From contig NMRA01000022.1 in assembly GCA_002633005.1 (NCBI GenBank), positions 679,715 to 743,714 of the forward strand: 64,000 nucleotides of DNA. The letters run 5' to 3'. Of the stretch, positions 33,226-62,600 are shown piece after piece. The stretch's first letter is position 1, and each line of letters starts with the position of its first letter. The notes below the pieces were generated by a model that saw only the letters and a list, made by a program, of their open reading frames with translations, did no database searches and was not told the origin of the DNA. Source of the stretch: Phoronis australis (taxonomy: Eukaryota; Animalia; Phoronida). Both the position numbers and the translations under genes were made by a program.

Positions 33226-35216
33226 TCAATTGAACTGTTTGCCTAAGGATGGTAAGGAAAGCTTAAATCTTGTTAACGATGACCGTCTGGCTCAGGTCAC
33301 AAATGTTGATGAGATGTCCGACCATCTTCACCAAAGAAATACAAAAAGCACCTTTGTTTAGATTTTTTCGATGCAATAATTAGAAAAAAATCATTACACA
33401 ACATCACTTGAAAGGTACTGTCCAAGACCTGATAAATGACTTATGGGGTTTGTGGCCAAGTGTGTTCTTATGCAATTTTCCGAAGCTTTCCTCGTTAACG
33501 CCATGCCCATACTCAATATATACATGCAAATAAATGAAACTTTATTCAATCGAGCCTCAGAATCCTTATTAGAGTCAGATATTACAAACGTCTATGCTGA
33601 ACCTGTCCGATGTCTGAGCACCTACTCCGACGATGACTATTTTCCACTACCTTGTTATTTCATATCGCGTTATGTCATTGCCTTACCACGTGTCAAACGG
33701 TGATGCTGATATTAAGTTTCTGTCTAAGCACAATAAAAATGAAAGCCCGCACAGAAGGTCAAATTTTGCGTTATTCGGAGGATTTCATCTATGGTGCTGT
33801 TGTTTTCCAAATGCATTGTGGGACGGTTATCGGCTGGTTAAACATCCGGTGACATCACAGATAACCTGTGGACGTGAAAACTGATAATTTACGTTTCAGG
33901 TCGCGAGATTTGACTTCAGCGTAATCGGACGACGCGTCTCGAGAACGTTCCTTGCAAAAAAACTTGCAGATCAATGTAATTATTCGATGCATTTTGAGAC
34001 TTCGTTTCTATCTCTAATTATACTACGAGGGTTGTTTTGTCGTACTCGCACCAAAAGCATGTTCAGTGCACCCGTACTAGAGCACGCAAGTGAAAAGCAT
34101 TGTTCTTCCCATTTCCCGTCCGTACTTCGCATGTTTGAGTCAGTCCTCCCCATTGACAGTCCGAGCCAATACTTAGGGTTGGTTTTCCGACTACGGCAGT
34201 GCGAGCTTCGTTGTCAACATTTTAGCTAAGCTCATCAAAGGTTGCTCTAGTCAATAACCCAACTCTTAAGAGCTGAATATTGGCTGAGGTTGCTCAGGCT
34301 TTTATGTTTAGTTGCAATGTTGCAATATTACAAGAAACCGTGGGCCAGCTAATTGCTTGATATACACTAGATGCATCGCGTAATGGAATTTGAAGAGTGG
34401 AAGTTCTACAGACTATTGCTGTGTTTTAACATAATGTTGGAGGTGTGCATAAATTTATTTCTAAATCCATCCTAGTATAAACCATGAAAGTTCACACACA
34501 AAAATCATTCTGTATAAATATATAATACAGATCAGGAAAAAACAACTGATTTCACACATGCAATGCAGCGTGTTTCTTAAAGAAACAATTTAGTGATTAT
34601 TTTCCTAGATTTTTCTTAAAATATCTCGTCCCTACTGAGTCAACAGTAATTTTCTATCCGTCTATCTAGTGGACTTGCAGAAAGAAATGAAACAAATACG
34701 AATGACAACACATACAATGACGTCGCTGCAAACGATCGTAATGTTACGGAAGAAACCGATTAGTATTTCGTGTGTGTCGTCATTTGCACGAGTCGTCATT
34801 ACATTTGCTTTGCTGGTGATGTAGTTTATTTCTACTTCTTCCACTGCCTGCTTGCGACGGATACGAAAACAGAACGGCCCTGAGGCATGCAGCCGGACTG
34901 GGCACTGTCCGGCGAATGTATGCAACCTGGCTTCGGCCACGATCACGTGAGGCCTTCTGCTACGGACTGGAATGGTTGTAACACTTTGACTCAATAGACT
35001 CAAGATTTGACCAAAGTCGACGAATTCGTCTTTAAAAGTGAAATCTTCTTTTGTAGCATATCTAACAAAACAAACGACTTTCCTGCCAGCGAATCGGAAT
35101 AAAGAGAAATATCGTCAAAACCATTCCTTTAAACTTCAACAGACTCCAGACTTGAAGTGAAATAGGAATTAGTCTCAAACACTAGACGCATGTAGAGATA
35201 GTAAGAGTCTTTGGCA

Positions 35217-35315
35217 TTACATCTGGTCTTCGTCACCGCGTTTGATAATTCGCACGAACTTCTCGTAGTTGAACTTTCCCGCGGAGATGGGAGCTTCTTT
35301 CCATGTCTGTTTAAT
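35217..35315 (-). CDS. MRLC terminal exon 7b
   Basis: cag|[32 protein letters not shown]; candidate AATAAA at 34459-34454. Confidence 0.92.
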   Translation of the reverse strand: MKQTWKEAPISAGKFNYEKFVRIIKRGDEDQM

Positions 35316-38300
35316 CTGAAAAAATAAAATGCATTTTAATTGAATGAAATTCGAAATGCTACACATGACTGACACCACGTAGAAAGCATGTAGAAGGACA
35401 ATCTCCATTTAATTAGGTCACGCAATCCGGCCTTTTAAGTACAATTTATCAAAAAGAAAGGTGCATTGGTAGAAAAATAACGCTTTCAATAACATGATAC
35501 TCGATTTAAATCTTCAAGGTGAGATCCCAAAACGCTGCAACGGTGTTCTAAAATATCATTTCGCTTTGATTTTGTGCAACCATAGACGGTACTGCAACGT
35601 GAGATTTTTTTTATGAAAATCACATATTGGCTCCTCACAACCTGAACTTTCGACATTGTATGACTTTTCCCGCGAACAATCAGCAGTTTTCTTTAGCTAA
35701 GCTTTAAAACGCTTTCGAAAACTTTACCTCTTCTTTTGTAAAGTTGTCTCCCATGTTGGTTAGCAGATCTTCTACACTGAAAGACGAAATAAAATTAAAT
35801 CCAGTAAAAGAAAGTCGCTTTACACGGGAAACAGCTGTCACGGAGCAACTAACACGGAACAGCTGATCGGGCGCACGTCTGACACGGAGCAAGTTGACAC
35901 CGCAGCGGCCATTTTTGACACCAGTTTGAGAGGTAGAGCGAGTTGCTCCAGTGTCAACTACAGGTCTAAACACAACTGGGACAGGACGGAAAGGGATCGT
36001 CTGTCAATGAGCTTGAGCAATAGCGTATATACGGGTGATCTGCATGGTTTGAACGTTCGCCATTGTTTATGGGAGCATGCGCAGACAGTCTTTGTGTAAA
36101 TGACTCATGCCGATCCAGTTTCACATCTAAAGTTGTGTAAATGCGACTTAAGCAGAGCAAGTCACACCGTGACAATTGTTCCCCGCATAAATAAAGGTAT
36201 CAAAAGTTCCGTCCACACACAAACTTACTCTTGAACAACTTGGACTAGTGCAACTTGCGCCACTTGAAGTGAAACGTTCACATCTGGGAGTTTGATATTG
36301 GTTCACACACACAAAATAACTCGCACAAGGCGGAAGTTGTCGCTCTATACCAGACAATGAACAGCTGAAGCGAATACGGCGCGCAAAAGAAAACTAGTTT
36401 TTATGTAACCGCAGCAAATAAGTTCTCACAAGTGAGGCAAATCGCACTAGTTTTAATGGCATCCAGACATCCCTCAAACCTAGAGACAACTCGTTCCAGG
36501 AGTAACATGTTCTATGGTAAATCTCTTTGTGGATGGCACTAAATACATTGTCTGCTGGAGTATCGTTACATCACATTATGTGATTACACCACATTATTCC
36601 CACACAAAAAACGAAGTTACAAATCTATAAGGAATCTACCCCATAAGAAAACTCAATATGCTTTCCACTTTCGCTGGCACCTTAAATGTTTCAAAAGTAT
36701 TTAACTACCTTATGATTATGACTAACCCAAAACTCGTTCTAAAATTTCTTTTGCCCCAAACCAACATCTAAGCAGAACTCAAGTGAAATACTATTTGACC
36801 GAATACGAACATCACTACTGAACTCACCATCACAAACATTAAAGAACAAATGACTGACTGACTAAATAACTATCAATGTTACAAGCCAAAACCAATGGGT
36901 TAATGACGTAATTAATAAACAACAATCTACTTACTACTCCTCATCCAGGAATCCGCTGCCAGCTGGATCAAACATCTGGAAAGCGTTCATCAAGGTGCTC
37001 TCAGGGTCGGTGCCTGAAAGAAGGTAGACGTACTGCATAAATTAAACCCGAAAACTATAACGATTTCGATAGAGCGCAGCACGAGGTAAATTACCAGCCA
37101 AAACCTGAAGGTAAAATGAGTTTAAATTTCAATGTTGTAGTTTGTTAACACATTTGTCGCCATTGGAAATTTGGCGGTACACAAGAGGAAAAATTACCAA
37201 AACCTGTCTTTCAGTTTGATAGCTTTATATCAGGTTGAATAACTTGGTCTTTAAAAATGCTTGTAAATAGTTTACACTAGGAAAGTTTGCAACACGGGTT
37301 CGTGGGTAGGAAACACAAGGGAAGTATTCAATTTTGTCAAAACAGAGTTGCGTTCCGTAGACTTGAGACATTAGCAACGCACTTGCGGCGATAATTTGAA
37401 TCTTTGCTAATGGAAAAGAAACAGCGAAATTTATGAATTCTGTCCAATCATGCAACATTCCAAACTCGCCGACAAATCACTTCAGATGTCGCCATTTTGT
37501 AAACTTACGCTAAGTTCTCGCATACTGGCGAAACAGCCGTGATTTTTGTGTTCTTTTTGTGTGACTCTTACGTGATATAGCTTGGACTAAGGAACGCTAC
37601 TAACTTTGGATACATTTAAATCAGGAATTCATCGAACATTGGGACTCAGAATGCGTTGACTTACAAGGCAAGATTAAAATGGGCAGTAATTCACACAATA
37701 TCTTTAACACAAATTGCGAATTATTTACACACATTTGACCATGCATATTGAGAAGACAAACAATAAAGCGTTGTTTGTCGCTTTGCAGTACTAAACTACA
37801 AACATAAAGACGCAGACCTAACATGCAGGGAGTTTCAGCGAGGAGAGAGGCGGAAGCCCACGTTGGAAGACACACTGACAAAGTAATGAACGCTCTACTT
37901 ACCGCTATCCATGTAATACCAGCAAGTCAACATCAGGCATATAAACAAGAAATTATATTGCTGCTTTACGGTCGCACTAGGTTAGTTGTAAGGTGCTTTC
38001 CTTTTCATCAGTACATGCGTTACATTTCGTACAAAGAAACGTTAACAATTCAGTCACAACATGTTCCGCAGAAAATTTATTCTGAAATACAGACTTTTTT
38101 AAACAATCCACAACTTACAAAGTACTCCTGCCGGTGCACAGCGATGCAACCACTGTATTACGCCAATCACCATTCTACATTTTAGGACTTGCAATAACGC
38201 ACCCCATATACAGATTTGTATAGTAAAAAATGCTAAAAGGTCATTCTAAACGATAAGTCTCAACCCTACAGGGCCAACAGTCATTCAACAGAAGAACTGG

Positions 38301-41300
38301 CAACTGATCACCAAATGGACTGCCTGCTGCTGTTTCTCAGATTGTTGCCGATTTCTCTTCTGCAGAATGTTTTGGGAGCGATGTCAATCGAACGCCGGGC
38401 AATGTAAGAACTGGGCTTTTCCCTTAACAATGCTTACGTAAGTTCCCTTGTCAAGCAACTGTGTCAGTATGGAATGATTGGTCAACTTTGGCCCAGTAAG
38501 CTTGAGATGACATTGAAACTACTTATGTGGTACAACACGATGGAAAGCACAAAACTCCTCAACCATTACGCAAGGAAAATCAGTAGAGATTCTAATTTGG
38601 TTCTATTCGCAAACTAACATAAACAAAGCTGACAATCACATTGATCTGATGAGATTTAGAATTAAGAGTAACAAAAGTTAATTGGTGACATTGTAACTAC
38701 ACTCTCTCTTGATAAAGAAGTTCTTCCATGACGAAGAGAGTGATGTGTGTCTATTGTATCCATGTTAAATTTACAAGATAACCGAAAGCAGACAACACTG
38801 CCGACGGTGACTGTCTCTGGTCAAATATCACGTGATTTATTGTTCGTCCTGTTGTCCTTTCAAAAGTTTCACCATGGCCACGTAGTCGAACTTGCCTGCG
38901 GAAATTGGGGCTTCCTTCCAAGTCTGACGCATCTGAAAACGTACCAGAAATGTTGCTCGTTTCCAGCACAGTTTTACGTGTTTCATCAAGTACATATAAC
39001 CAGACGGTAGTGCTTACAGGTAGTAAATGCCACATAGTTGTCTCCAATACGAAATGGCAAATCAAATTGAGAGACGTGGTCTCGAAGAAAGGAAGTGAGC
39101 TTACCTCTTCTTTGGTGAAGATATCTCCAACGTTTTCCAGTAGATCTCTTACACTGGAATACAAAAAAAGGTTGTTGAAACTAACTTCCAACCATTGTAC
39201 TGTATGCACAAGTTTTAACCGAAGTTGTCTGCAGGCAACGAGTTAGCATTGCGTTGAAATTAAAATTAGCTGCTTTGACACTGTTACTTGTTGTAGTTGT
39301 TGTTGAGCAATGAGATACTTGGGGGGGGGGGGGGGGGTTAGTTTCTAGCCGGGAAAGGGGTGGTTTGGGAGACGTCCTCCAGATCCGGAGATGTAGTCCA
39401 TTTCTCCCATAATTTAAGAGGGGGGCGGTGAGTCCTCAGACATTCACATATAACGTGCTCTGCTGTTTCGTCACCCAGACTGCATTTTCTGCACACCGTT
39501 GACATTGTTGTAGCAGGTAAGTTATAACATTTAAATCGCTTGTTTTCAGAATGTAATCCTGTTTTCTCATTTAGCATATTGCTTAAAGACTGGCTGAGGG
39601 TAACTTAACATAGGAATTCAGAATTATGCAATGAACTTTAATTTTTACTCTTGAACGAGTCATTAGTCCGAAAACGGTAGTTAAATTTACACAATGGGAA
39701 AACACTTTATATACCATGGGAATACAAATAAACGTTTGCGTTAATGGTTTTTTTGATTGTGTTATCATTAAGTTATCTTGAAACAATTAACAAGAGCAAC
39801 GCCGAGCGTTGAAATGCGCCCACGAATGCATTGCAAATGGTGTGCTTTTAAGGTTATTTATTTGTATAATAAAAATGGCCACTAGATGGCGCAAAAACAT
39901 ACCATCCATCCATCCAAAAACAGGAACATGCCATATTTCATAAAAATCTGTCAAGGAACTTCAGAGAAACAAAGGAAAACAGAATAAAATGAAATTGCCA
40001 CTAGTGGGCACAGTGTCGTTGTATCTGCCTAAAAGTGGTCGTTGTCTGTTGTTATCTTCATATAAATACACTTACAAAATTTAGTAAAAGATCTTGCAGT
40101 GGGTTTAAGAGATACAACTATGGGCGCAATACAAAACTGCCACTAGGACGCGCCACAGTAATCAGTCAACGTCATCAAACGTCGTCTTCACACGAAGAAC
40201 ATATATGCCAATTTTCAAATGATTTGTTCGATACAGTGGTGGACATCAAAAACAAGATTTGAAAACAGCAAAAATGGCCACTAGGTGGAGCAAAATACCT
40301 CGATTCCATCCAAAAACAGGAAGATAGCCTATATTCAAAATTTTATGAAAATCTATTGAGGACTTTTTAAGATACTAAGTTAAACGTAAAAAACTAAAAT
40401 TGCCGCTAAGGGACGCAGCAGTAATCAGATTTGTCCGAAAGTCGTCATCCGTAGTCAACATCATATAAATACACTTGCTAAATTAAGAAAAGATCCTGCG
40501 AACGGTTTAGGAGATACAGCCATAGGCGCAACAAAAACAAAACTGCCACTAGGAGGCGCCTCAGTAGTCAAAATCGTCGGAAAATCATCGTCAACCGTCC
40601 TCTTTATAGTAAGCACATACATGCTAATTTTCACAATCATCCTTTGAGCGGCTTGGTTGATAGAGGGGTGGACGCAAAAAACAGACTCGAAAACAATAAA
40701 AATGGCCACTAGGTGGCGCAAACTACGACGAATCCATCTGAAAACGGGAGGATAGCGTCACCTCACTAATAGGTGCCTACATATTATATTTCATGAAAAT
40801 CCGTTAAGGACTTTTGAAGATACAAAGGTAAACGTAAAAAAAATAAAATTGCCACTAGGGGGCACACCGGTAGTCGGATCCGACCGAAAGTTCGCTCATG
40901 CCGTCCCATTCATGAATGGAACATATGTGCCAAATTTCATGAACGTATGTCAAAGGGTTTTGGAGGTAGAGCAGCGGACGCCGGACGGACGGAGATGACG
41001 GCATAATGCGTCCACATATAAATATGTGGGAGCATAAAAAGCAATCAAATATCTACACCAATTGTTGATCGTCTGTTTTATTGCTAGTTGGATAGTACAA
41101 AACGTAAGGAAGCAAACATAAAAAGAGCGAATATTCATATTTTTTTATACTCACTATTCCTCAGGGAGGAATCCGGTGTTCAGATCATCGAACATTTGGA
41201 AAGCATTTTTGATTGTGGCTTCAGGATCAGTACCTGGGGGGAATACGACCAAATAACAAAGTTGAATTCCAGAATTCCACAATCAATGACTTGCGTTCAT

Positions 41301-44300
41301 ACATTTAACTGACAATTGAATGTTAAAGCAAAAGGTAAAACCACACACTTTGGTTCATGTGCTAGGCCTATGTACGAAACATTTGAGTGAAACCAAAGAA
41401 ATTTAATGAATAAACGTAAACTAAATCCGCTACAGTAGATGACGAAATGATTTCAATTTAATTGAAAATAATTAAGAACGGATTTAAACGTTCAAAAAAT
41501 CCAGTTTAAGATAATGGCCGTGTGAGTGAAATGCTTGAGCAAAGGTTTTTGAAAAAATGCGTCGTTGCGAATATAGGCGCTCGTTTACTTCGTTAGTCAA
41601 CTCTAGTGGGTAATATCTTACTGATATTTGGCCAGTTATCCCTACATGTTACCTTATGAGAGTATTTTCAGTTAAAAACGTGACATTATCTTGCAATTTC
41701 AGGCATCAAAAGCAACACCAAGGACCTTTTTAACTGGGCTTCGTGATTTTTGTTGCTTCATTACTCGAAATGTTTTCAATCCCGATTTAAAACGGCTCTT
41801 TGCTGAACAATTTCTTGAGCGGGGTCACGTAATGTAGGCGATTTCTGTGAAATGTTGTTTTGGAGATCTAGGTGAGCCAACTTGCGATCGAGTCGGTCAC
41901 GCCATCTGGTATTTTCAAACGAAAAAAGCATCTAGTAAAAACAACCACCAAAAGCAATTCCAAGTGATGATTTCTCCTTTCGATAACCATGGTTCTTTTC
42001 TTCTGTTTCCCTTATTCGTAAATTGTCTCGTCGCGGAACTTTCTCTTGAGCGATCTCCACGACATTTTGTTTAGTAGTTCTTGGTAAGCCGATTCGCGTA
42101 CAAGCCGGTATCGTCACTAAATGACTACGCGCATATACGGTTTTCCAGAGTTGTCGAAACACTAATCATCGAAACTACCTCAAATTCTTAATTGCATCAC
42201 ATAGTATACCATATCTGACCAGTCCGTTTTACTCACCTAACTTCACATCCAACGTAAGTTTAAGGTCGACTATGTTCACTTACCGTGTGCCTTTTCACCA
42301 AAAAGTGTAAGAAAAGCCGTGAAGTTGAGCTGTCCTGGGCACTCGGCAAGCATCGCCTTGAGAGTTTCAACCTTGGGTTCCTGGCCTGGATTGTATAAAG
42401 TGCAAAGGCGTCAGCAGATGCAACCAAAGCTCAGGGATCTAAGCAAGGCTAGCAAGCACAGGAAAGCAGCCGAACTCTTTCGCGTGCAGACGAACAACTC
42501 GCGGGAAATATTTCACGGTTTGTACGGAACAGTGAGCATTGACTATGCCTGTGTCAGATAAGGATATCCACGATTGTATTTAGCAACATGATTTTCCATG
42601 TAGTTTTTGTGTCATACTAGTAAACTAAACACTGCCCGTTTCCACGAGCAACCATTCGTCCGCAGGCGAGAAGAAGCCAACTAGAGTCAGGCACTACAAC
42701 TACGCGACAGCGGCGACGGTTGGCTATACAGTCTTACCGCACAGCTTTTCTCCAAAAATCGTTAAAAACATTGTAAAATTAAGAGGCCCCGGCGCTTCCT
42801 TGACCATGTTAGCCAGGACATCGTCTGCGGGGATTCGACCTGAAACACACACACAGAGAGAAACACACACCAGTTAGACGGGAACACACCTAAACGACGT
42901 TTGGAGTGAATGCTACACGCAGCTCTCACTGAACAAATCACAGCTGTTAGGATAGTGGGATCAATGCTGGAACTTAAATCCGAAGGCAACCTTTTTTCAT
43001 GTCATTTTTAGCAAAAATAAGGTTCGTTGATTACCCAGACATATTTTTCACTTATTTACTGCTTTTCGTAATTTAATTAATTTCTCGTCGTCTACTCCGG
43101 AAGTGACGTTTTGGGAGGCAAGAATTTCGCGCCAATTTCTTTTCATATAGTCTGACTGTGAGAGCAGTCGAGTCAGTCATTGTGCTACTTCGGTTGTGAT
43201 AAGTTTGGTCGTCGTTTGCTTTTGCTTACGAGTCAGTCAACATGCCACGCTCTTGCTGCGTACTGGGGTGTACTCATTATCGTCTCACGTACAGAGGAAG
43301 AACTGTCCCACTTGCCCGAGTGTCCCGCGACACACTCCCACTGAAGGGTGATCTGAGCACCCAAACTGCTTACATTCCGCCGTGTGACTCCCTCGCCACA
43401 CACCTGGAATCTTCCAAATAGCTCCAATACAAGTCCACAATAAACTTATAAAACTTAGGCTCACCGATCTGTTCATTGGATGACGAACTGTCCTCTTCAC
43501 TGGGTGTCGAACTGGGCCTGTATTCACTCCCACTACTCAACATCGCTGCAGGGCTGCTTACAGGCTCTGGGCTAGAGACAACAGCACAGGGCGAATCACT
43601 GCTAGTTCCTGGAATTGCACGCAATGGAGTACGTTCGGAGGCACGGGTGACAGTAGATGAAGTGCCTCCAGTCACTGCATATAGTGGCCACAGCTCGCGA
43701 GGCTTCTCGCTTCAAAAACGCTTTTCTTGGGGTTGGCGACGACGCACTGCCGGGAATCAACAGCGACGGTATGGTACCCTTCTTCAGGCTTTGTTTCGCA
43801 GGGACCTTCATCAATTCAGCGTACATATCTGTCATAATCTGACGGCAGAAAATGCTTGCCACACACTCTGTAATCCTCTACTGCTTTGTACGTTGCGTGG
43901 ACGGGTAGCGCTGCGTTCTTCACATGAACGAGCTAGCCAAGTACGGCGAAGTGTGTCATCCCTCGGAAAGCGACGCAAGGTACCCAAAGCGTGTGTGAGA
44001 AGATAATGAGTACATCTCGGCACGCAGCAACAGCGTGGCATGTTGTCTGACTTGTAAACAAAAGCAAACGACGACCGAACTTATCACAACCAAGGTAGAA
44101 CAATGACTGACTCGACAGCTCTCACAGTCAGACTATAATGAAAAGAAATTGGCGCGAAACTCTTGCCTCCCAAAACGTCACTTCCAGAGTAGAGGACGAG
44201 AAATTAATCAAATTACGAAAAGCTGTAATTAAGTGAAAAATGTGTCTGGGATAATCAACGAACCTTATTTTTGCTAAAAGTGACATGAAAAAAGGTTGCT

Positions 44301-47300
44301 TTCGCCTTTAAGTATTGACTGCGATAGGAAATAATTTGGAGGACAACAGATCGGGCGTACATTCAGAGCAGTGACATCCAAAGGTGGGAGGTTATGTCGA
44401 TTCTGAATAACTATCACTGATATGAAAAGGTTACAAGTGGCCTTGGCAATTTCGCCAAGGAAGAGATGTGCAGTTATCAGATCACTAACCCGTTGGCTCA
44501 AAAACCTTACTACTGGAGGACACTATATTGTGAAATGAAAAAAGTGTACTGTCAACTTTTCAGTTTTAATTCACGTCGGTGTTTGATTATAAAGGGCGAG
44601 ATCTTAAGTTTGTACGTGAAATATTAGTCCCGAGTAAAGAAACAACCAACCATAAAGTACGGTAATACTTCCCCTAATTCGCACAAAAATAATTGCAGAC
44701 ATTGTAGTTTTCCAGTGTTCAAATGCCGGTTAGTTTGTTACAAATAAGTGAAACTGTACTAAATGTTATTTTATGACTTCTAAACAGTACAGCGATGCCA
44801 ATAAAAGACTATTTGCTTTTTCTTTGTTTTTCTTTTTGTGGAGAAACTAGACAAAATAGAATTCCCCCTGTGGCCACATTGTGTGATAAATTAGCGACGT
44901 AGTACCTTATTAACATACTCAAACCGTTTTCCAAGGATATCAAAGTCTCTCTCAGCTTGTGCAGAGCAGAATGGAGGTACTTATACGTCGAATGGAGGGT
45001 GACATGCAGGCACGGACAGGCCACACGGAACTGGCGGGATACTCAGGGGAAGTGCATTCAAGGAAGATAAAAATATTATCTCAATTTTTGATAAAATGCT
45101 ATTCTTTTCAGCGCTGCGTTTCGTAGAGCACGTTCCTTGCAAGAAAAGCGAGTGATTGCACTAGCTTTACTCGCGAGTGTCTTGCGTCTACGGAACGTGC
45201 CCAGTGTACACAGTTACAAGTACACGTATGACACTAGAAATGTCCAGACAACAGCAAATTGTGTCAAACAAAAGAAACGCCAAGGATTTCTGTTTTGAAT
45301 TGTTAGATTATTTTGGCGTATCAGTTGTTCGTAAAACCTTACCGCTATCTGTCGGTGCCACTCAAAACTTACCTAGTGAGGCGTACATGTCCTTCAGGTC
45401 TTCAACATCGATGAATCCATCCCTGTTTTGATCGATCATGGTAAAGGCCTATAAAAAGATTTTTCAAATTTTAAGGATTTTACAAAAATAACAGAAAGTC
45501 ACAACAGTAAAATCTCACCAACTTAGGACACAAATGAATTTTTTCATTCTATATCAAATATTTGTAGTCTTGTTCATTTGAAGTTCTGTACAATAGCTGT
45601 CATCACGCAATGATAGTTCTATACAATAACTGTCATCACGCAATGATAGTTCTATACAATAGCTGTCATCACGCAATGATAGTTCTATACAATAGCTGTC
45701 ATCACGCAATGATAATTCTATACAATAGCTGTCATCACGCAATGATAGTTCTACACAATAGCTGTCATCACGCAATGATAGTTCTGCACAATAGCTGTCA
45801 TCACGCAATGATATCATAAATTGTGAACATTCACAGCAATTTTTCAAAAATTGAAAAAGGTCAATATTGGCTATAATTCATGTCCGAAATTGGTGAGAGA
45901 ATAGTACAAATACAACAGGGGTAGCAAACTGTCAAGTTTACGAACTGTGTAAAGCAGCTTTCCGAACAGGCTTAAATTTCGAACGCAGTAGCACCCGAAC
46001 CACGGAACCATTGGTCTTGCAAGTGCTCAACCACTCTCCCAGAGCACAATGGATTTGGATCAGAAGAGTGATTCACATATCAGATTTCAACGTTCGGCAT
46101 GTCGATTTCTCCATTCGAAAAGCTGATTGATTCCACCCTGTACAAGCAACCTTTCACTGGAATCCGAGAACCACGTGTGTCTACATACGCACTTGTTACA
46201 GAGACTTGCAAATGATACATTCATAACAAAACTCTAGTTCTACATTCACTTCGTAAAACTACTACACGAGTATACATTTACAAACGTAGACTAAAACAAA
46301 AACATATTTTAAACAGCTAAGAAAAAATCATTGAATTAGTAACATATACAAAATACTAATCTTACAGAAAGAATATTTTCTAAACAATTTAGTTAAAATA
46401 ATCACGAAAAACTCATGTTTAAATATCTGGTCGAATTAATTCGCTTTCTCATTGTTGAATTTTCAGTATCTCACCAAAAAATACAATGAAAACGCTCTGA
46501 GTAGCGACACTAGGCGAAATCAAATAAAAATTTATAAGTAAGGTCGACGACGAAACCAAGAACATCAACAACTACGATCCCGACGCCTAATACAGCAACA
46601 TACAGTAAGTGATAAACCGGTAAAAGAACAGCGAGGAATCAGTCAATAAAATACATCAAATCAGGAATACTTGAATAAGTCGAGAGTGCTACGTGTAACT
46701 GGTAGCGAGAAACCTATCACACACTGCAGATAGCCCCTCAGGAGATTTATTAAAATACACAATATTGCGAAGATTCGGTCAAAGAGGATTCGGCCAAAGG
46801 ATGGCAGAGCAGGAGCTACGCAAACATTGGGAAAATGGCCGTCACAGTGCCATCTTGCGTCCCATTGCGCCCAAAAACAAAACAAAAACTTCGAGCTATT
46901 GACCAGATAAATACTGTGCGTAAATTTCCTATTGATCAAACGAAAAAATGTCCTTTCTAGCACAAATATGATAGGCCAACAAAGTGCAGCAAGAAATAAG
47001 TCAATAAAAAAACAGTCATCTAAACAGTAAATCTCGAATATCTCGATAACGCTAAGTCGTACAGAGAAACGGCTTTCACGGGGCTGATGTTGCTTGAAAA
47101 GATCTATCCACATACCAAATTTCAGACAGGCCCGTCAAGGGCACAAAAGCTCCATTAATTCGAGAGCAGTCCTCACAAAATCTCGAATAACTCTAGAACG
47201 GTACGTCCTAGAGAGAAACAAAAGCATATTTCCCCATAGCCTGTGAAATGGTCTATCCAAAGAAAACCCTATCAAAAAATCCCTCCAGAAACAGCGGGAC

Positions 47301-50300
47301 GGTGGCTCCTCAAACCAACACAACGTCACCTTGCGTTCGATTTCACAATAAGCTTCGAGCTATTCATGAAACACAGCCTCATCGGATAGGAAATGCGACC
47401 TGTAGCGTGCGAACAAAGGAACAAACAAAAACAAAACAAAAAGTTTACCGGCGACAAAGCAAAAGACTTGGAAAAATTCCATTTCACCAAGTAATACAAT
47501 TCAAAAACGATAATTACAAGGATAATGAAACACTCCACACGTCATGCACGTTTCTTGAGTTTAACTTATGAAAACACCTTTACAGTGCGAATGCCAAACA
47601 CTAAAAAAACACGTGGGACATACGGTTAGATGAGAGACCATATTCGCACTTAACAAACGTCATGCAAAATATCTCCAGAAATATATTAAGAATTATCAGT
47701 AAATAGGTTTTCGAAAAGTTCCCCATTAATTTGTGAGACAACGAATACGAAACAGATGAAAAACACAAACTGGAACTATAGTTCAACCGATTCAACATGC
47801 GCATTCAACAAGTCACGTGATGTCATTCGACAACCATAGATCATTTTGAAGAAGTGTATGCAAAGGATCCTATCGGTTATAAAAGTGTCCCCTTCAGTCA
47901 AGACTCGCCAAAGGTTAAAGCGACAATGAATCTGCCTTCCATGTTAAGAAAAGACAAGTTTTGATTCAGACCCCTTACCGTTACAAAATTGGTCCTAAAT
48001 TGTTCCTTAATGAAAATGGAGTTGATTTCTGTGTATCGAAAGAACTGGCAGTTCGTTATTGCACGAGACCAACCTCTATACGTTGGCTTGTCACGGAGTG
48101 TCATTTTATGCACAGGAATATGTTTCAAGGAAAAACGAATTGTCAGTTCCTTGTAAACCCAGAAATCACTTCTCATCTGAACAAAGAACAAGTTGCGACC
48201 AATTTCGAAGAAGTGAGTGGTCTGAAACAAAAGTTTGCAATTGGACGGAACGCGGGTTCATAACCGCTTTGAGAAAAACAAAGACCATATTAGTTGGGAA
48301 GTGATGCGACGCAATAACATGGGCATCAGCTGACAGATTGCAATGTTCAAGTGACGTAACATCAAATTTTTTGGGGGGTGGTAACGAGAATTCATATGAA
48401 AAGAGTGCCGAGAGATGAAAAAAATGTAAATAGGAGATTTCTTTAGGCAGGGTGGTGACGCGAATCAACGCAAAAATCGAACTTCGAGAAGGATATATCC
48501 GTCACATCTGAAGGAACTATCGTTTTTGTGCCCAAATCGTTCAAATTTTGGCATTTCAAAGAAATACTAAACAAGAAAACTTATTTCATTATCAGCTTTT
48601 TCGAAATGGTGTCGCAATGTTAAGATGTGAGATTTAAATTTTCTCTCGAATTTAATGGCTGCTGTTTCTACAATCAGTAGTGTTCATTCTCAAGTCACAC
48701 GAGTTGCGATTTACACATCGAACTGATTCAAAGCTAAAGCAAGAGCACAATTTGACAGGAAATGCATTGCTGCCATACTACTTGATTCAAACAGTCCCAA
48801 CAATGGCAACAAAACAAGAGGCACTTTCATGAAAGGAACGATTACAACTTTCCAATTGTTAGGCCACAGCTTTAGAAACAGTTCGACGAGTAGAGCGCAC
48901 TGAAGGCAGCCCCATGAGTGGATAGTGTTAAGCGTCACGTGACAGGCGTCATAGGGTGAGGTAACAACCACGGCAAGCAGCCACGGGCGGCAAGCAGCCA
49001 TGGGTGGTGTCGACACACTTTACCTCCTTGAATTCCTGTATCTGCGCTTGTGGGAACATACCCAGCACATTTTTTGATTTTCTTCCCTATTTTCGGCATA
49101 TGTATAAAATTATTAACACCATACTTATAACAACAGTATTGTACCGCCATGTTCAATTACCATCGTTGCTTCAGTAAAGATATTATATTGACCATCTTAC
49201 ACCACAGTCCAAATGCTCAAGTCCAAATGCTCAAGTCCAAATGTCGAAACAATTCATATGAAAAGTATTTCATCGAACATCATCTGGGATTTTTATGAAA
49301 AGTGGACGTGGTGGCAGACACGGCATGAAAAGCAGACGATGGTTTCTGATATTTGCGGTTGAACAAACCTCTTTAAATTCCTGGATCTCGGACTGTTTAA
49401 ACATTGAAAAAACATTCGAGGTAGCCCGCTGAGCGCGTTTTGGCTCCTTCGCTCGCTTAGCTGCCTGTAAATAGTCCGACAGAAAAACAACCACGATGAA
49501 ATCACAATTCACAACATGGCCGCATAACACTCGGGTCTTTCGCATCTTCTTATCAATTGGTAGTCCGCTGTCACGCACAGAATGTGGTCACGTATCATGC
49601 TAATCTGTGCCCCTGCATCTACAACTAATCATACCTTCATTCGAGAGCAGCGTCGACTCAGTGTCCTACAAAGCAAAAGACGCCCATGCTTTTTAGTGAC
49701 TTTTTTACCTCCTTCAATTCTTGGATTTCTTGCTGTTTAAACATAGAGAATACGTTCGACTGCCTTCCGCTGCGTTTCGATTCTTTCGGTTCACCACCAT
49801 CATCAGCCTCGGTGTCCTTGGCCTTTGCAGCGTCACCACGCTCTCTAGCGGCTCTGCTTGCTCGACTCGCCTGCATAAATACCGAAGGTACCCAGTTGCA
49901 AACTTTTGGGTTACTGACAACATTCTAATCGCTATAATATGTATTATAGTTATTTGAATTCCCAAACCCATACTTTCAGTGTATGGGCAATATTTATACA
50001 AATTCTACCATTTACAATTTATTCCTAAATGTCTAAACTTGAACTTTAAGTTCTTAGGCAGACCTTTTCAATAATCTGCCTGAAGTTTCATTTCACCTCG
50101 ACACGGAATCTACAATACAACACCATTACTAGTCTACGAGTTTACCATTCCTTAAGTAAGTCAGAGCCAACATTTTATAAATAATCCCTCCCATTATTCA
50201 GCCTGTTTGTTCAATCCCGCATGACAGTAGCGTGTGTATTCTAATAACACCTCGTCTTTGTTGACATTTTCTCTTAATATTTACACAAACAATATAAGTG

Positions 50301-53162
50301 TCCTAAATTTCCGCGAGAAGGATCACGAACGCCGTGGTCGTTTCATGTTTGCAGGTAGGGATGAAAGGACACAACGGAAATTCGTTAAAACTCCTCCATT
50401 TTCGCATCATGGGGAATCACAACGGCGACATGCAACTGTACCACTAGCTTACTTTCAATAAACAAAAAAGTAAACCAGAAAAAAGTCTCAGTGTGAGGTT
50501 TCTCTAATAGTATGACCACGGTTTAAGTGAAAGCACTCTTGAATTATGTTGCCCGAAAGATGAAAATTATTTTGGCTGAACGATGACAGTTATTGTGGCT
50601 GAAGTGGTCCATCGTTCTACTAATCAATGGATATCTGTCTGGCTGGGGTTCAATCCCAGTGTTTTCTCTGCTATAATTGTCTTCACATCTCGCAATTTCG
50701 CCGCACTGTGCGCCCTTAGTTCATGTTCATTGTTTTGATACACTCCAGGGTGCCATCAACAAGTGTTTCTATGGCAACGAGATTAGAAAAATTTCTGACA
50801 TAATAGAGTGAAAGCGAATCTTACAATTTTAGTTCCATTAGATGGTCATATACGACAGTTATTGGTGGAAAGCGATGGTCGAAACAAAGTAGAAGTTAAC
50901 ACTGTTGGAGAAAAAAGCAGTGGTTGATAATATTCACAATTTTATGAATATCTCAGGAGCAGGGTTCGACTCTAATACCACAAATTAGCTGAAGCTGATA
51001 AGGAATCATTATAGCCGAAGGATTAATTAATGGATTTGATGCCCAGTTGCGCATATGTGTATACCGTAGAAACTGATTTACGGGCCATCATTGAGATCCA
51101 ACCGCGCGGTATAAGTGGTGTGTTGCCTCCCGCAACTCGGCTGTTTCCTACACCCTTCTTTGCAGCCACGCCCAATTATTCGGACCCACTGAAGAGTGTT
51201 TCCCAAGGACATTGGCGATTTAAAAGCAAACCCTGACTGAAGGGTGCTTGCCAACTCAAACCCAAGCCACTATGTTTAAAAAAAGTACAACGTTCTTGCT
51301 CACTCCCAACAAGTAACACGAAGATGCGACAATGTTAAATTCATTTCGATATATTGCACGATTCTTAAACATTTGTCTAAATCCCCATCTGCAAACAAGC
51401 CTTCCGTATCGCACTACAGTTCAGTTCATTACTGCTAAAACTCACCATTACTACCGGAACTCAACTTGATCGTCTAAAGAACCTTCGCACAGAAACTCAA
51501 CGCGTGAGAACGACCGTCTTAAATATTCCTTGAGCAGGCTCCTTGTGTTCTCGGGCTCTAACTCTCCTTGGTGGCTTTATACCATTTAAGGTCGAACCAT
51601 GACAATAACTATTGTTTGTCCAACTTCTAAGAGCTTCTTTTTAAGGACGACGAGTCCACTAGCTTCTACAGGGGTGTGAGACAACTTATCGCGTGAAAAT
51701 GAAAAACGGAAATAAAAATTTAAGTAACATGTAACAACTCTTTTCATTAGATGTTTGTTTATATAAATGGTTGTTATTTTCTTCTATCTTCGTAATGATT
51801 GACCGGGAATTCTTAACCGATAAAAGTATTTGAGTCCCATGCATTCCAATAATGCCAGTGGCTAATTACGCCGGAGTTGGCAGAAAGCACTTGTGAGTAC
51901 ATCTTCAACGAAGAACTGTGAATCTACATATTTTGTGCGATCACTCAAAGGCATTTGAAAATAAATTAATGGATATGGAAATTTAAATCAATTAATTAAT
52001 TCGCCCAGTCTAAGTCATTGAAGCAACTTAAAAGAGCATATTTCAAAACAAAAAGCCAAAGGAAAAGCACAACATCAACACAACATCTGAATCTGAAAAC
52101 AAAGAAAAGCGAATAAATTAGAATTAAGCTAAGGGGAAAATGTTTGTTAGTTCAGTTTTCACTAAACGTGCATTTCCTGAATGACCACCAGGTGGCAGGG
52201 CAGGTCTCAGTTGGCCTCTTATAACTCAGAGACTGGTTACAATCCGTCAGCAATGCTGTTTAAGAGATATTCGAGAACGCAAATCCAAAATGGTAAAAAA
52301 CTGAACACCAAATACCATTGCCACCTGGCGGACATAGTTGGAACTCATAATAACGTGGCTTGCAACGGTCGTGCCGTATACGGAGTAACAGTTATTATGA
52401 TTCTTTGTTCATAAAATTTTATGTAACAAATCATAATCCACCACACATAGTTCAGGTTGTGCATAGTTAATACCACAACCTCTGATGAGAAATATCGTCA
52501 AGCAGCGGGTTTTTTTTTGTTCCGACTCTCAACATAAGAAATCCTTTCACTTCTCAAATCTGTATTATGTGAATGACAACCACATCATTTCATGTCTCCA
52601 TTGTCCACCATCAACAGATTTAGAGAAATTACCCAATTACTTCTAAGCACTACGGCTAAATAGCCATTAGTCCACTCGTTAGGAAGACTATCATACTTTC
52701 TCATCGGAGGTTCTAATATTAGTCCAGCTCGGATTCCGTTCCTGTCACGTATCCTCGAAAGAAGGCGTAATTCAACACAGGAATCTATAACAGGTGCACA
52801 TAGGATAAAACATTTGAAAACACCAGACAAGCATGAAGATAAAAAGATGTACAGAGAAATCACGCCCATTGGCTTAAAAATGACAGCAACACAGCAAATG
52901 AAAAGCACAGTACACAAATGCGAAAAATATTTACAGAAACGAAACTATTTAGAACTTGGTAAATATAACAAATAACACGTGCATTTTAACACTATGAACT
53001 GAAAATTAGGCAAAAATTCTTGGAAACGTTTACATGACGACGTGGACGTATCTATTTCAATTTTAATTTGAAACTCGCCACACACTTCAGCACTTAGTTA
53101 ATTTTCGACTAACAAATAACAGATGAAAATTGACCAAGGAGTTAGCTTACCTCTTCTGCCAT
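35217..53162 (-). CDS. Myosin regulatory light chain (MLC2/MYL9/sqh family), alternatively spliced gene
   Basis: Assembled exons give a complete RLC: RATSNVF...QEFKE|[18 protein letters not shown]|...[14 protein letters not shown]|GTDPE..NAF|..DLL...GD.FTKEE|..WKEAP. Splice phases (0,0,1,1,2,0) are consistent across all alternatives. Confidence 0.95.
35728..35776 (-). CDS. MRLC exon 6b
   Basis: cag|[16 protein letters not shown]|gtaaag; 49 nt. Confidence 0.92.
36935..37013 (-). CDS. MRLC exon 5b
   Basis: cag|[27 protein letters not shown]|gtaagt; 79 nt. Confidence 0.92.
38837..38932 (-). CDS. MRLC terminal exon 7a
   Basis: cag|[31 protein letters not shown]; candidate AATAAA at 38081-38076. 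Confidence 0.9.
   Translation of the reverse strand: MRQTWKEAPISAGKFDYVAMVKLLKGQQDEQ
39105..39153 (-). CDS. MRLC exon 6a
   Basis: cag|[16 protein letters not shown]|gtaagc; 49 nt. Confidence 0.92.
39285..39785 (-). mobile_element. 3' fragment of a non-LTR retrotransposon
   Basis: [18 protein letters not shown] is a LINE C-terminal CCHC knuckle, followed by a (CAA)n-like tail. Confidence 0.6.
39789..41040 (+). mobile_element. Non-autonomous Helentron/DINE-1-like element with internal tandem repeats
   Basis: Starts aacaagag. The subTIR atgcgcccac pairs with the 3' gtgggagcat. It also has a (GACG)n microsatellite, a 3' hairpin and about three 400-bp higher-order units. The same 3' end recurs at about 18510-18552. 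Confidence 0.75.
41155..41233 (-). CDS. MRLC exon 5a
   Basis: cag|[27 protein letters not shown]|gtgagt; 79 nt. Confidence 0.92.
42284..42385 (-). CDS. MRLC alternative exon 4b
   Basis: cag|[35 protein letters not shown]|gtaagt; 102 nt, same length and phase as 4a. Confidence 0.92.
42738..42839 (-). CDS. MRLC alternative exon 4a
   Basis: cag|[35 protein letters not shown]|gtaaga; 102 nt. Confidence 0.92.
42978..44307 (-). mobile_element. Kolobok-like element: TTAA TSD, about 315-bp TIRs, frameshifted THAP-transposase fragment
   Basis: [18 protein letters not shown] / RVCGKHF / LKKGTIPSL (THAP, in shifted frames), then [11 protein letters not shown]...[12 protein letters not shown]. Confidence 0.85.
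45373..45448 (-). CDS. MRLC exon 3 (only shared exon; EF-hand 1 metal-binding loop)
   Basis: tag|[26 protein letters not shown]|gtaagt; 76 nt. Confidence 0.95.
45583..45813. repeat. 33-bp minisatellite, about 7 copies
   Basis: Unit caatagctgtcatcacgcaatgatagttctata, contiguous with no spacers. Confidence 0.95.
46400..48300 (+). mobile_element. Heavily decayed L1/Tx1-like LINE
   Basis: A-rich plus strand with colinear degenerate motifs: NQEYLNK (like DQEKAFD), RGFGQ (like RGVRQG), PHRIGNATC and [13 protein letters not shown] (like the CCHC knuckle). Many stops and frameshifts. Confidence 0.4.
49024..49086 (-). CDS. MRLC alternative exon 2c (21 aa, short, no RATSNV motif)
   Basis: tag|[21 protein letters not shown]|gtaaag; not shown in this frame in the ORF track. 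Confidence 0.85.
49369..49464 (-). CDS. MRLC alternative exon 2b (32 aa, canonical MLCK/ROCK site)
   Basis: cag|[32 protein letters not shown]|gtttgt. Confidence 0.92.
49709..49870 (-). CDS. MRLC alternative exon 2a (54 aa, long charged N-terminal extension)
   Basis: cag|[54 protein letters not shown]|gtaaaa. Confidence 0.88.
51446..51448 (-). CDS. MRLC start option 1b: first exon ending in ATG
   Basis: GTAGTA ATG|gtgagt. An ATG-only first coding exon is typical of myosin light chain genes. TATA and CArG lie about 130 nt upstream. Confidence 0.7.
51576..51591 (-). promoter_or_regulatory. TATA box abutting a perfect CArG (SRF) box, MRLC proximal promoter
   Basis: Minus strand reads CCTTAAATGG-TATAAA. 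Confidence 0.6.
53151..53162 (-). CDS. MRLC start option 1a: 17-nt microexon (53167-53151) encoding MAEE
   Basis: tcttttcag|AAACA ATG GCA GAA GAG|gtaagc; phase 0, compatible with all exon-2 variants. Confidence 0.75.
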
Positions 53163-53935
53163 TGTTTCTGAAAAGACAGAAACACAATTAAAGCGGTATG
53201 CGGTGTAGATAAATGTTACTTGAAGACGTCACGATGGTTTGAGGATGGATTGTTAAATGAAGCATAACTACCAATGGATATGTCAGTTGACGGACTGTTA
53301 ACGGCCTAGATCATCTAAGACTGTAAACATTTTCAATGCAACAGAGAGAGCAGGCGTATTTTGAAAAACAAAACAGCGGGAAAATATGAGGAAAGAGTCG
53401 GGAGTTCATTGGGACAGGATGTAAATGACGTCAGCACAGTGACCCACTAATTAAAAACATATGGGTTCAACTTTCAAACAGAACGGTTATATAAAATTGT
53501 GCTTTCACACAATAACATATGGAGAGAAATGTGAACAGCCATAAAATTTGTAGATAGTTGCACACACTCCTCAGCACGATCCATTTACGTAACTAACGTA
53601 AGAGATGTACTAGTTGACTCGTTCTGTCAAGTGGCGTCCACGGACGGTACGGTTCGTCTAACTATTTAAACAACCATGTCGTTCCCGATATTAACAGTTC
53701 AGGCTTAACCCAGTTCAGTTTTACAGAAACACGTGCAATCATAAAAGTGACGGTCAGCTATACACACCCTATGACCGGAACTATAGTCACCTACGTAGAA
53801 ACTACAGCTAATCCAGTTCGTGATCACATTTAAATGCTGCACTGATTTTTCTAGAAAGGGAAAATTGTATCCTGGATACCGTTCAAGTTCAACAATTCCG
53901 TAAATAAATGAGAAAGTCAATAAAACTTCACTTAC

Positions 53936-54013
53936 ATTTCGAAAGTTCGTATTGGAGAAGAGACGCAGCGAACAGGCAGAGCGACCGGAAGGATTGAACG
54001 AAGTGAACGAACT
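53936..54013 (-). other. Candidate non-coding first exon of MRLC (distal promoter)
   Basis: Inr-like TCAGTT at 54015-54010, a pyrimidine-rich leader, a perfect GTAAGT donor at 53935 and a CArG box at 54031-54040 just upstream. Confidence 0.5.
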
Positions 54014-54030
54014 GACGGAGGTAGCCCGTG

Positions 54031-54040
54031 CCAAATAAGG
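54031..54040. promoter_or_regulatory. CArG box at MRLC distal promoter
   Basis: CCAAATAAGG, about 20-27 nt upstream of the candidate Inr. Confidence 0.45.
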
Positions 54041-55440: not shown

Positions 55441-56150
55441 TACCTCGAATTTCCGAAAATAAGCTCACCCAAAAGTACGCCCATGGGCGTATTTTCGGAC
55501 ATTTCTCCAAAAGTACGCCCATGGGAGTATTTTCGGTAACTGTTTACATGTTTTGAAAAATCTGACAGATTATTCTAAAATACGTGTGCAATATGTTTTG
55601 GTGTAAACTTTGGTTTACTTCGGGCAGCCATTATATTTTGAAATAGCGATTTCAATTAAATGACAGTCATTTAACGAGATATTAGGCGAAAGATAGTTTG
55701 ACGCCGGCACTTTGTTTGCTGAATGCGAAATAAGTAGGCCTATGAACCAATTCGTACTCTGAGGTGAGATACATACATTAAAAAGGACGTGTTTAACTTC
55801 ACAACTAATGTTTGTTTAACAAAACGGCAGAAAAATATTCGTTGCATATGTTAATGAGTAATAAGCCTACTCTATCACTTTCATCAAACTATTGCCACCT
55901 CAGAGTCTTCAAATGCCTCCCCTTCGCTGGAGACTTCAGATAGATGCTGTACTTTGAAAACAGCATTGATTACATAATTAATGATAGCTATTTGATTTAA
56001 AGAGGATCATGGAATATTTGACACAGTTTCCGAAAATACGACCATCAATCCGAAAATTCGCCCAAGGGTATATTCGGTTTCATTTGACGTTTTTGAAAAT
56101 TCGTTTTCAAGAATATCAGCAAATGGGCCTATTTTCGTAAATTCCTAGTA
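55441..56150. mobile_element. TA-flanked Tc1/mariner-pogo-like non-autonomous element
   Basis: tacctcgaatttccgaaaataagc ... cctattttcgtaaattcctagta TIRs, with repeated subterminal cgcccatggg motifs. Confidence 0.55.
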
Positions 56151-59600: not shown

Positions 59601-62600
59601 AAAAGCTTGAAGAAGAAACAGATTGTGTGCGCAAACGACTGAAATGAATTGAGATTTAGCTGATCAAACTGCATAGCTGCGTAGAAATAAATTTGTTTTA
59701 CAGAATTGAGGTAATGAGCGAGCAGAAACATACGTAGAACACAATGGCTGGTTAACCCAATGGCCCAATAAACAAACATTCCTTCAAATCAACATTCTGA
59801 GATAGCGAGTAATTTCGCAAGAACTACATTAAATCGTACTTAATGGGAGTCAGTCACCAGAGATGTCTCGAGTAAACGTGGTGTTAATTGGATAAGAATA
59901 AGCTAAAACATCGTCTTCAAATAAACTATAATGAGCTGATAAAATGTTTCAAAAGTTGTGACCAAGGCCAGTTGTACTCACTTTTACGTTAGAATCAAGC
60001 GAGCGTCCAGGCGAAGCCTCCAGTCGATGTTACACACCAGCAAACAGTGAGAGACGAATACCTCTGCAAACCACGTAACCCTACACCTTGGTTCATGCTA
60101 AATGGGGAACAGCCGAGTAAGGCAAAAGGCCAAGCACATCGTTTAGTTTAACTGCCCTTCCTGTGAACTTGTAACCGTGGCAACGAGAGAAGGTATTTTT
60201 TGTGGACTGTATTTGTTCTTACAGGAGCGCTAAAACAAGTTGTTTCATGAAAGTTGTATTTGAGATCAGAAGATATATGCCAGGTTGAGACGTCTTCGTT
60301 GATATTGCAAACCCAGAGTCGAATCTATGAACTTAAACTCGACATCAAATTATTTTTGACATTCTACCATTGGCATTCAAGCAATATAAATACCTAAAAG
60401 ATTGTATGCTCAAATATTGAGGCCCTGTATTATGGTTTACCCCTAGAATGGATTAGCCACGAACTCGAAATCCAAATTCGAGGTTCCGATTCTTAACTTG
60501 CGAATCGAACTTACGACGTGATGCTTGGATTGTCCAATGCAAACTGTACCACACCAGACATACCTCTATGTCAACCGTATGCGGGCTCAATTACTAACAC
60601 AATCAGAAACACCGTCTTAAATTCGAAAGTAAAGGCAAGATGTAAAAAAGTTCGGAGATGAAATTCCGTCCCTATGTGTTGTTATATTAATATTTTCTAG
60701 CATAAGACGTACGAGTCGAGCAGTGGGCACTAGCCAGCGAGAGCGTGAAACGTACAAGCCTCTTTTAAAGGACCGATAAGGGTTTTACGGCCGTTGTCTG
60801 CCAAACATTTGCTGAAGCGAACACCGTTGATTTTACCATGCGCTTAAAATACTCCGAGGTGCCATTTATCGGCTGGGATATAGCTCCCCCAGCGACCGAG
60901 GGATACCAGGCTTGATTTCGCGCTGAGGCTGATCTCATAAAATTCCTCTTCTCGCCGATTATGTGCGTTTAAAGCTACAGTAACTATCTTGTTTTCATTA
61001 GTTCAGAACAAAGAATGGTGTCGGACAACCGAATGATAAGCGACTGCAACAGAGCCGACGCTGCATTTGTATAAAACTCGATTTCTTTTTATTTTCTAGG
61101 CTTATAAGAAGTGAATCATTGCAAACAAGTATGACGTCGAATTTGCTGGTGCAACACCAAAAGACTAAAAATGAAATTTAGCGATGTTTAAAGAGGCATT
61201 GAACGCGAAAGCTCTTCAAAAATATCATTTAAACAATTCCTGACGAAAGCACCATCACGCAAAGTCTAGTACGTAGTAATTCACTTTCCCCTGTGAGGAA
61301 ATTTCCAGGAAAAATCCCAAAATTTACAATTTTTGATATACGCACGAAGGAAAAACTCCGTGGTTACCACAGAGTTTCTAATCTCCCTCCCACTTATGAT
61401 AAATGCACGCATGCGCCCAGTCAGCCGCTTAAAGTCAACGATCACATTTTTCATATAACAAGAAAAGTGCTATGTTTTTGTCTTGCTATACCAAATAAGG
61501 AGACCTGCTTTGCTTTGAGGGAGAAAAATCGACAAAGTGGCGAGCAGTTGACCGATCGTTTTTTGAAATTTGAAACTAAAAGAAAAGGATTTGATATCAA
61601 CAGAAATTAAAAATCTTTACGAACAATCCCTAAAAATACCTGGTGAGCTGGTTGAATTCTATTTCAGTGGCAGAAAACAACTTTCATTATTGCAATTTAA
61701 TCTGTTTATCGCGTTCCAGGCCTCCTTCACTGTTACCTTGAGACACCCGTTTCCCGATTGTTTTAATTTAATTAGGAGTGTCAGAAAAATGGAGTTGAAT
61801 AAGGCAAGTTAACACTTTTTGTTTTCTAAGACTATACTCTTGTCGGGATGGAGCTCGTAGGTGTTATTTTGGATTAAAGAATCGAATTATTCTTTTCTTA
61901 TCTTAGTTTGAAAGTGGTCATTTTGTTCCTCTGATGTAGCACTCTAAATAATATGAAAATGAAATCTTTATGAGATTTTGTCTAAAAAGAAAAATGATGT
62001 TATGTTGAAAGGGAATTCAGTATTATATGTATTTAATTATTGTTTTATTGTATTATAATAACTGTTTTATAATTTGTTGTTGAGAGCCCCCTTGGAAAGC
62101 AGTTCTGACGTTGAAGAGGCCACCCCCATTTTAAATATTATAATAAATAAATAAATTAAGGGATTAGAGTTTGACTTAAGTGGCTCCACAGGCGAAGTCT
62201 TTAACTGGAATGAATAGCTGAACTGTGCCTGTTGGTCAATTGTAAATAATTTAGGGGTACACGAGCCATAAGATACCTTGCGTGTCTGCCATGCTCGAAC
62301 TGCTGGACAACATTTCCAGGTATTCAATAATAATGGGTCGAACGAGGTACGTTCAGGTACTAAGGTTCAGTACACATAATTAATAAATGGTATGTCATGA
62401 CTGGTCATGAACACGGGTTTCCTTCGCCCTAAAATCTGCAATTTTTAAGAAATAAAAACAAAACTGTTCATTTGCTAAGTATATCGTGATAAAATGTTGT
62501 GGCATCAAAAGAATTGCAAAGTATTCGTTCACCACGCTTACTGGCAAAGTTACGAATTTTACTATTAATGTGCAATAATTCAAACTCGTTCATGGATATG

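Follow-up and report, generated by a model that had tools for sequence, protein, structure and literature searches.

We analyzed a 64,000-nucleotide stretch of Phoronis australis DNA (assembly GCA_002633005.1, contig NMRA01000022.1, positions 679,715 to 743,714 of the forward strand; hereafter the window, numbered from its first letter), which carries a myosin regulatory light chain (RLC) gene on its minus strand. We consider it probable that this is a single muscle-type RLC gene with two locked 3′ routes, yielding two main proteins that are 68% identical and likely serve slow or tonic muscle and fast muscle, respectively. The two-route gene is real, expressed and unusual; what is new in it is a duplicated, locked module of exons 5-6-7. 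It does not amount to a 24-way combinatorial family, nor does it supply non-muscle-like chains.

Two locked 3′ routes

The exons lie where an earlier note, made from the letters alone, had placed them on the minus strand, to which all gene features below belong. They have GT/AG ends and matched phases, and comprise three copies of exon 2, one exon 3, two copies of exon 4 and two of exons 5-6-7. RNA evidence was taken from four of seven runs, namely contigs of X1 and stranded raw reads of X5, X6 and X7, these three from one study, with about 18–19% of the reads of each of the last three examined; runs X2–X4, which have small shares, were left out. Triplet counts are given in the order X5/X6/X7.

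Route B joins exon 4a (42738..42839) to 5b (36935..37013; 4a→5b, 95/107/658 reads), 6b (35728..35776; 5b→6b, 125/156/806) and 7b (34450..35315; 6b→7b, 100/154/779). Exon 7b has a stop at 35217 and its own 3′ untranslated region (UTR), the end of which is approximate, with an X1 contig over 34491–35315 and AATAAA at 34830 and 34459. Route A runs from exon 3 to 4b (42284..42385; 3→4b, 11/84/1367), 5a (41155..41233; 4b→5a, 9/70/1004), 6a (39105..39153; 5a→6a, 8/79/1212) and 7a (38064..38932; 6a→7a, 8/103/1431), the last with a stop at 38837, its own 3′ UTR and a poly(A) site marked by AATAAA at 38081 and, in X1, by a loose poly(T) end at 38064. All 897 reads leaving exon 4a (100/102/695) matched the 5b consensus and those leaving 5a (8/81/1191) matched 6a, in both cases with an agreement of 1. 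The 4a→5a joint was absent among the 15 joints listed out of 21, the smallest of the 15 having 4 reads. Under independence 8/42/397 cross joints of each kind would be expected; none was seen among the joints listed. Exon 4 is thus tied to the 3′ module by a lock that is nearly absolute in bulk RNA. This locking limits the set of transcripts started by the MAEE exon (below) to six forms, two of them dominant.

The earlier note had pictured up to 24 in-frame proteins, assembled combinatorially into smooth/non-muscle-like and striated-like chains. All 24 of the 24 exon combinations are open when spliced by coordinates, with the sizes foreseen (155–192 amino acids, aa), but this is a paper count, not what is spliced. 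Besides the missing cross joints, exon 2a accounts for only a handful of reads, the ATG-only first exon was without a joint among those listed, and both forms fall outside the non-muscle clade, so that free assembly is a very improbable account of the gene. What stood of the proposal is one gene making paralogue-grade chains by splicing, and junction mapping found more than one exon path expressed in three runs.

The exons of route A, which ends at a poly(A) site of its own (38064), lie together as an uninterrupted block inside intron 4 of route B, and a single choice after exon 3 thus sets the whole C-terminal 100 residues. Since the exon-2 and exon-4 copies are all multiples of three, the reading frame cannot impose that choice. 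The share of route A was about 8–9%, 38–40% and 60–62% of reads in X5, X6 and X7, and the ratio varied eightfold among the runs. A lock working in cis, through RNA pairing or exon definition across 4b-5a and not through muscle type, would agree with the near-absolute lock in bulk RNA and with the lack of tissue labels on the runs; the routes might then follow stage or co-occur in one cell. However, the intron after 4a and the intron before 5b were linked by no inverted repeats beyond chance length among 25 of 30 and 25 of 25 pairs listed, compared without a shuffle control; the longest arms were 14–25 nucleotides at 72–93% and gave no convincing RNA pairing. With the eightfold shift in route ratio also standing against it, we regard locking in cis as unlikely.

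A single exon 3 and its duplicated neighbours

Exon 3 (45373..45448), supported by sequence and read joints, is present once and encodes helix B and the metal-binding loop of EF-hand 1, with Asp at position 12. A sensitive tblastn search with its peptide over the 64-kb window found no second exon 3, as the earlier note had held, so that neither outcome named there as refuting it, a single expressed path or a second exon 3, applies; the next-best matches (E 0.13–0.9) were the EF-hand-3 loops of exons 5a and 5b and chance matches. No extra copies of exons 2 or 4–7 inside the gene appeared in the tblastn output listed. The accompanying claim that only one exon is shared was too narrow: exon 3 is single, but the MAEE microexon and the non-coding first exons are also common to both main products.

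The 16-kb tandem duplicate that adjoins the gene in the window might raise the suspicion of two ordinary genes in tandem, or of an assembly that collapsed and dropped a second exon 3. In the raw reads, though, 2b and 2c are joined to one and the same acceptor of exon 3 and a single donor serves both 4a and 4b, no variant letters occur at exon 3 among 40 of the 41 rows listed, and the exon order is interleaved; this explanation is hardly credible.

Between the duplicate exons, protein identity is 17/33 for 4a and 4b, 17/25 for 5a and 5b, 12/16 for 6a and 6b, and 17/31 for 7a and 7b (52–75%), and 33 of the 60 same-residue codons differ silently. Judged by this divergence, the exon duplicates are old.

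The 5′ end and the two main proteins

Most transcripts begin at 60033, 6 kb beyond the span 35217..54013 that had been assigned to the gene, which leaves out the main first exon. This non-coding exon of the distal promoter (59982..60033, 52 nucleotides) was placed by a pattern match, by its joints to the MAEE exon and by read ends at 60033 (8/28/325 molecules). A second non-coding first exon (53936..54003, proximal promoter) is a minor start, with joints in 10+7, 10+5 and 243+158 reads and, in X7, read ends at 53999/54003. Both splice to the MAEE microexon (53151..53167, 17 nucleotides), which carries the start codon and whose letters stand in reads between the first exon and 2b or 2c. Exon 2b (49369..49464, 32 aa) contains a phosphorylation motif and joins exon 3 in 90/114/668 reads. 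Exon 2c (49024..49086, 21 aa) joins it in 17/132/1763 and has a lysine at the place that we take to be equivalent to Ser19; its acceptor is weak and purine-rich (pyrimidine share 0.45). Exon 2a (49709..49870, 54 aa) is rare, with 2a→3 joints in 3/1/2 reads, 6 in total.

The main product of path B, MAEE-2b-3-4a-B, has 170 aa and the phosphorylation motif, and that of path A, MAEE-2c-3-4b-A, has 158 aa and is without the Ser19 equivalent. They are identical at 108 of 158 aligned residues, and the 30 residues of MAEE and exon 3 are common to both.

A candidate ATG-only first exon (51446..51560) was recognized by its sequence, with a TATA-like box near 51580 and an uncertain 5′ end; no joint of it was among the 15 joints listed out of 21. 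M+2a aligns over its full length with the long N-terminus of Lingula isoforms X1–X3, and Lineus isoform X3 begins with a lone M; this start is therefore probably real and rare, and would feed exon 2a. In X5 the intronic depth is raised but low (1.3–2.4) at 50074–51996, just downstream of this candidate exon, and 3 of the 6 exon-2a joints are found in X5, together a weak hint of a third promoter. A few X7 reads skip MAEE (first exon→2b, 4 reads, and first exon→exon 3, 4 reads; 49463 and 45447 to 59981) and are likely splicing noise.

Probable coupling of exon 2 to the 3′ route

In the explanation that we favour, exon 2b would be used mostly with route B and exon 2c mostly with route A, next to a minor 2c+B form of about 5–15% and a rare 2a form. 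Cell-type splicing programmes, not frame or size constraints, would switch 2c and the 4b-7a block on and off together. The 2b→3 joints equal the 4a→5b joints nearly read for read, and the share of 2c (0.16/0.54/0.73) and that of route A (0.09/0.40/0.60) climb together across the three runs. Three transcript-sized relatives, P0175, P0195 and P0224, carry the 2c-3-4b-A path at 86–89% identity, one of them without its first residues.

By analogy, the 2b-B chain would belong to slow or tonic muscle and the 2c-A chain to fast muscle. Scallop-type chains 2os8_B and 3pn7_B of the PDB differ in the exon-2 stretch only, which fits the splicing of scallop RLC isoforms from one gene that Perreault-Micale et al. 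reportedly described in 1996. The scallop heavy chain resembles the phoronid RLC in having duplicated exons in fixed combinations, not every combination being made; in the heavy chain these go with muscle type, as they may do here, where the combination is fixed for exons 4–7. The alternative exons of the heavy chain are a small part of a large protein, whereas those of the phoronid RLC make up about 80% of the chain, including the last exon and 3′ UTR. A phosphorylation site is present in one RLC isoform of catch muscle (PMC12040844), and the fixed heavy-chain combinations are those of scallop catch and striated muscle (PMC3912159).

A scan for splicing-factor sites (7 motifs in 26 windows, set against the gene's own background) gave YGCY clusters, with 8 in the 120 nucleotides downstream of 2c, 5 downstream of 4a and 6 upstream of 4b, the gene mean being 1.45. 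We treat them as a lead for Muscleblind-type control.

Several observations weigh against this explanation. A Muscleblind map would favour 2c with 4a, not 2c with 4b, and the YGCY pattern does not fit the 2c-4b pairing. The 4b→5b joint was absent among the 15 joints listed out of 59, which bounds that direction less tightly, and the 3→4a joint is masked as a repeat (42841–42873) and was seen as 8 loose ends in X5, with a read depth of 130/132/876 on exon 4a. The link between exons 2 and 4 depends on marginal counts, taken from three runs of a single study, and on three relatives, with no read phased across exon 3, at which the X1 contigs also break. No close relative of path B was among the best 120 matches, where the best identity was 73–74%. 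In two of the three path-A relatives, the score of exon 5 is slightly better against 5b than against 5a; for both reasons relatives may not share the whole layout. The muscle-type assignment of the two routes, likely as it is, is drawn wholly by analogy. Finally, the 2c share exceeded the route-A share in all three runs (Fisher p 0.14, 0.004 and 7e-16), and exon 2 is not fully tied to the 3′ route. Reads starting at 60033 reach exon 3 after 132 nucleotides via 2c and after 165 via 2b, and this shorter path may account for part of the 2c excess; the rest suggests the minor 2c+B form. A pattern scan of metagenome contigs for path-B relatives yielded only L001, a flatworm-like transcript of no use.

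The same excess is what one would see if exon 2 were a switch separate from the 3′ route, giving at least four abundant forms (each of 2b and 2c with either route) whose co-variation reflects a mix of tissues. Promoter-by-exon-2 use varies between runs, RefSeq has all 2 × 3 forms for Lingula and 2 × 2 for Mercenaria, and the YGCY pattern agrees with 2c and 4a, all in favour of such a switch. On the other side are the almost read-for-read equality of 2b→3 and 4a→5b, the shares climbing together over three runs, and the phasing of 2c with 4b-A in three of three close relatives; moreover, RefSeq isoform sets built from short reads can include untested combinations. A separate exon-2 switch is possible but doubtful, and we retain the coupling of 2b with route B and of 2c with route A.

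Muscle-type descent of both chains

The sequence identifies the gene product as a myosin II RLC with a four EF-hand fold: P0175, which shares 89% of its residues with path A, has RLC chains as matches with E values from 1e-58 to 1e-36, exon 7b alone has RLCs as its first matches, and exon 3 supplies the metal-binding loop. The window itself encodes no myosin heavy chain. Trees were built from exons 3–7 and from exons 5–7 with 37 rows, 4 of them on the non-muscle side and none from vertebrates, and were rooted at the midpoint; 16 of the 51 database rows of a first attempt were omitted, one for a missing anchor motif. Both isoforms group with spiralian muscle RLCs (mollusc, annelid, flatworm and brachiopod), split from the non-muscle rows with 100/100 for exons 3–7 and 100/99 for exons 5–7. 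The named row nearest to path A is Lingula, over a long path and without starred support. Path B is 60% identical to non-muscle rows and 73–74% to muscle-type rows. By descent in these trees, both proteins are spiralian muscle-type RLCs and not smooth/non-muscle ones. The gene split between smooth/non-muscle and striated RLCs is dated to the bilaterian stem in PMC5167519.

The smooth/non-muscle-like chains that had been expected of this locus were thus not borne out. The smooth-type motif for light-chain kinase is intact in the sequence of 2b only, altered in 2a and absent in 2c, so only the 2b form would add kinase control. By a hand count against the PDB-chain alignment, the equivalents of scallop G117 and K149 are G and K in both modules, and both proteins would therefore be Ca2+-regulated; the roles of these residues in Ca2+ control via the essential light chain are taken from PMC4914028.

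RLC isoforms in other spiralians

We compared 14 named isoform groups as returned by the searches, which are not complete sets. Three of them (Babylonia, Patella and Haliotis rubra) differ in all segments and represent separate genes. Variation at the N-terminus or exon 2 occurs in all of the remaining 11, at exon 4 in 3 of them (Lingula with three forms, Mercenaria and Ruditapes), at exon 6 in one (Lineus) and at exons 3, 5 or 7 in none. None of these 11 sets contained a second 5-6-7 module that has a 3′ UTR of its own and is locked to exon 4, and no published description of such an RLC module was found in the full-text literature, mostly outside subscription journals. Exon-level modularity around one exon 3 is, on the evidence of these proteins, widespread in spiralians and already in RefSeq. 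The modularity that the earlier note thought undescribed is hence novel in part: RefSeq already has exon-2 alternatives combined with exon-4 alternatives around a single exon 3 for Lingula, Mercenaria and Ruditapes, and the duplicated, locked 3′ module is what P. australis adds.

The RLC of Lingula anatina (XP_013392924-929, isoforms X1–X6) has an identical exon-3 peptide, flanked by alternative N-terminal/exon-2 and exon-4 segments, and its isoforms X1–X3 have a long N-terminus like ATG+2a. It differs in having one 3′ end (exons 5–7 the same in 6 of 6) and three exon-4 forms, with all combinations in RefSeq. In the bivalve sets (Mercenaria isoforms X3–X6, Ruditapes, 2os8_B and 3pn7_B) the exon-2 swap gives or removes the RATSNVF motif, as in the phoronid, and venerid clams likewise have two exon-4 forms; unlike the phoronid, they have single exons 5–7, and their isoforms vary in one or two segments where the phoronid keeps only exon 3 and the start constant. 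In nemerteans (Tubulanus X1–X3 and Lineus X1–X3) MAEE is followed by any of three exon-2 forms, of which one is 2c-like; in Lineus, exon 6 also comes in two forms and there is a start with a lone M. Two different exon-4 stretches stand in tandem in each of three more database proteins; one of these, the annelid model P0203 named Paralvinella, shares the tandem exon 4, but with the exon-4 types in the opposite order. The nemertean sets and annelid models are without the duplicated 5-6-7 block. NCBI attributes two animal RLC sequences, P0288 and P0354, to Clostridium perfringens and Enterococcus faecium, which probably reflects contamination.

Repeats and the downstream duplicate

Three repeats were noted in the introns. 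A tandem array of 33-bp units lies at 45582–45813, upstream of exon 3. Intron 3 contains, at 42972–44313, an element with 319-bp terminal inverted repeats (91.5%) that holds a THAP-like domain with a frameshift (E 0.0004, which does not reach the Pfam cut-off) and has relatives transcribed on both strands. Intron 5a has an interspersed repeat with internal tandem units at 39760–41040, where RNA reads that stem from diverged copies elsewhere pile up in large numbers.

Downstream of the gene lie two tandem cytochrome P450 genes (PF00067; minus strand, exons at 29562-30191, 23722-24273, 11588-12148 and 8388-9188). A tandem segmental duplicate of about 16–20 kb (927–16928 versus 16927–36974), with long blocks 82–91% identical, starts in the middle of exon 5b and carries a cytochrome P450 gene copy together with the RLC 3′ end. 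An uncollapsed haplotype is an unlikely explanation for it, given that the alleles in the RNA are about 99% alike. Its copy of exon 7b at 15376–15474 on the minus strand has an intact acceptor, an identical peptide and 2 silent changes; upstream of it, the 5b copy is without its 5′ half and the 6b copy without its acceptor. With the 5b and 6b copies truncated, we rejected it as a third last exon and regard it as a probable by-product of the segmental duplicate, one that could serve as a spare last exon.

Significance

Exon duplication can stand in for gene duplication, here giving two chains from one promoter set. The two chains are 68% alike, and either is 65–74% identical to RLCs of other phyla. 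The snails in our comparison have separate RLC genes, whereas P. australis has one gene with duplicated exons. Tentatively, we suggest that the muscle RLC has split into two functional paralogues without gene duplication, one cell-type switch picking a fast chain or a phosphorylatable, tonic/catch-like one. If so, all coding exons except those for the start and EF-hand 1 would be doubled, a near-complete internal paralogy, and the single exon 3 would mark one surface that must fit the shared heavy-chain hook. The gene would then have arrived independently at the division into fast and catch types that is known from bivalves.

Gene models with all exon combinations, such as those of Lingula, may not match what is made. 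The locked routes offer splice markers, ready for use, of the muscle cell types of a spiralian that has been little studied, and the two chains are a natural swap experiment on which parts of the RLC set fast versus tonic behaviour.

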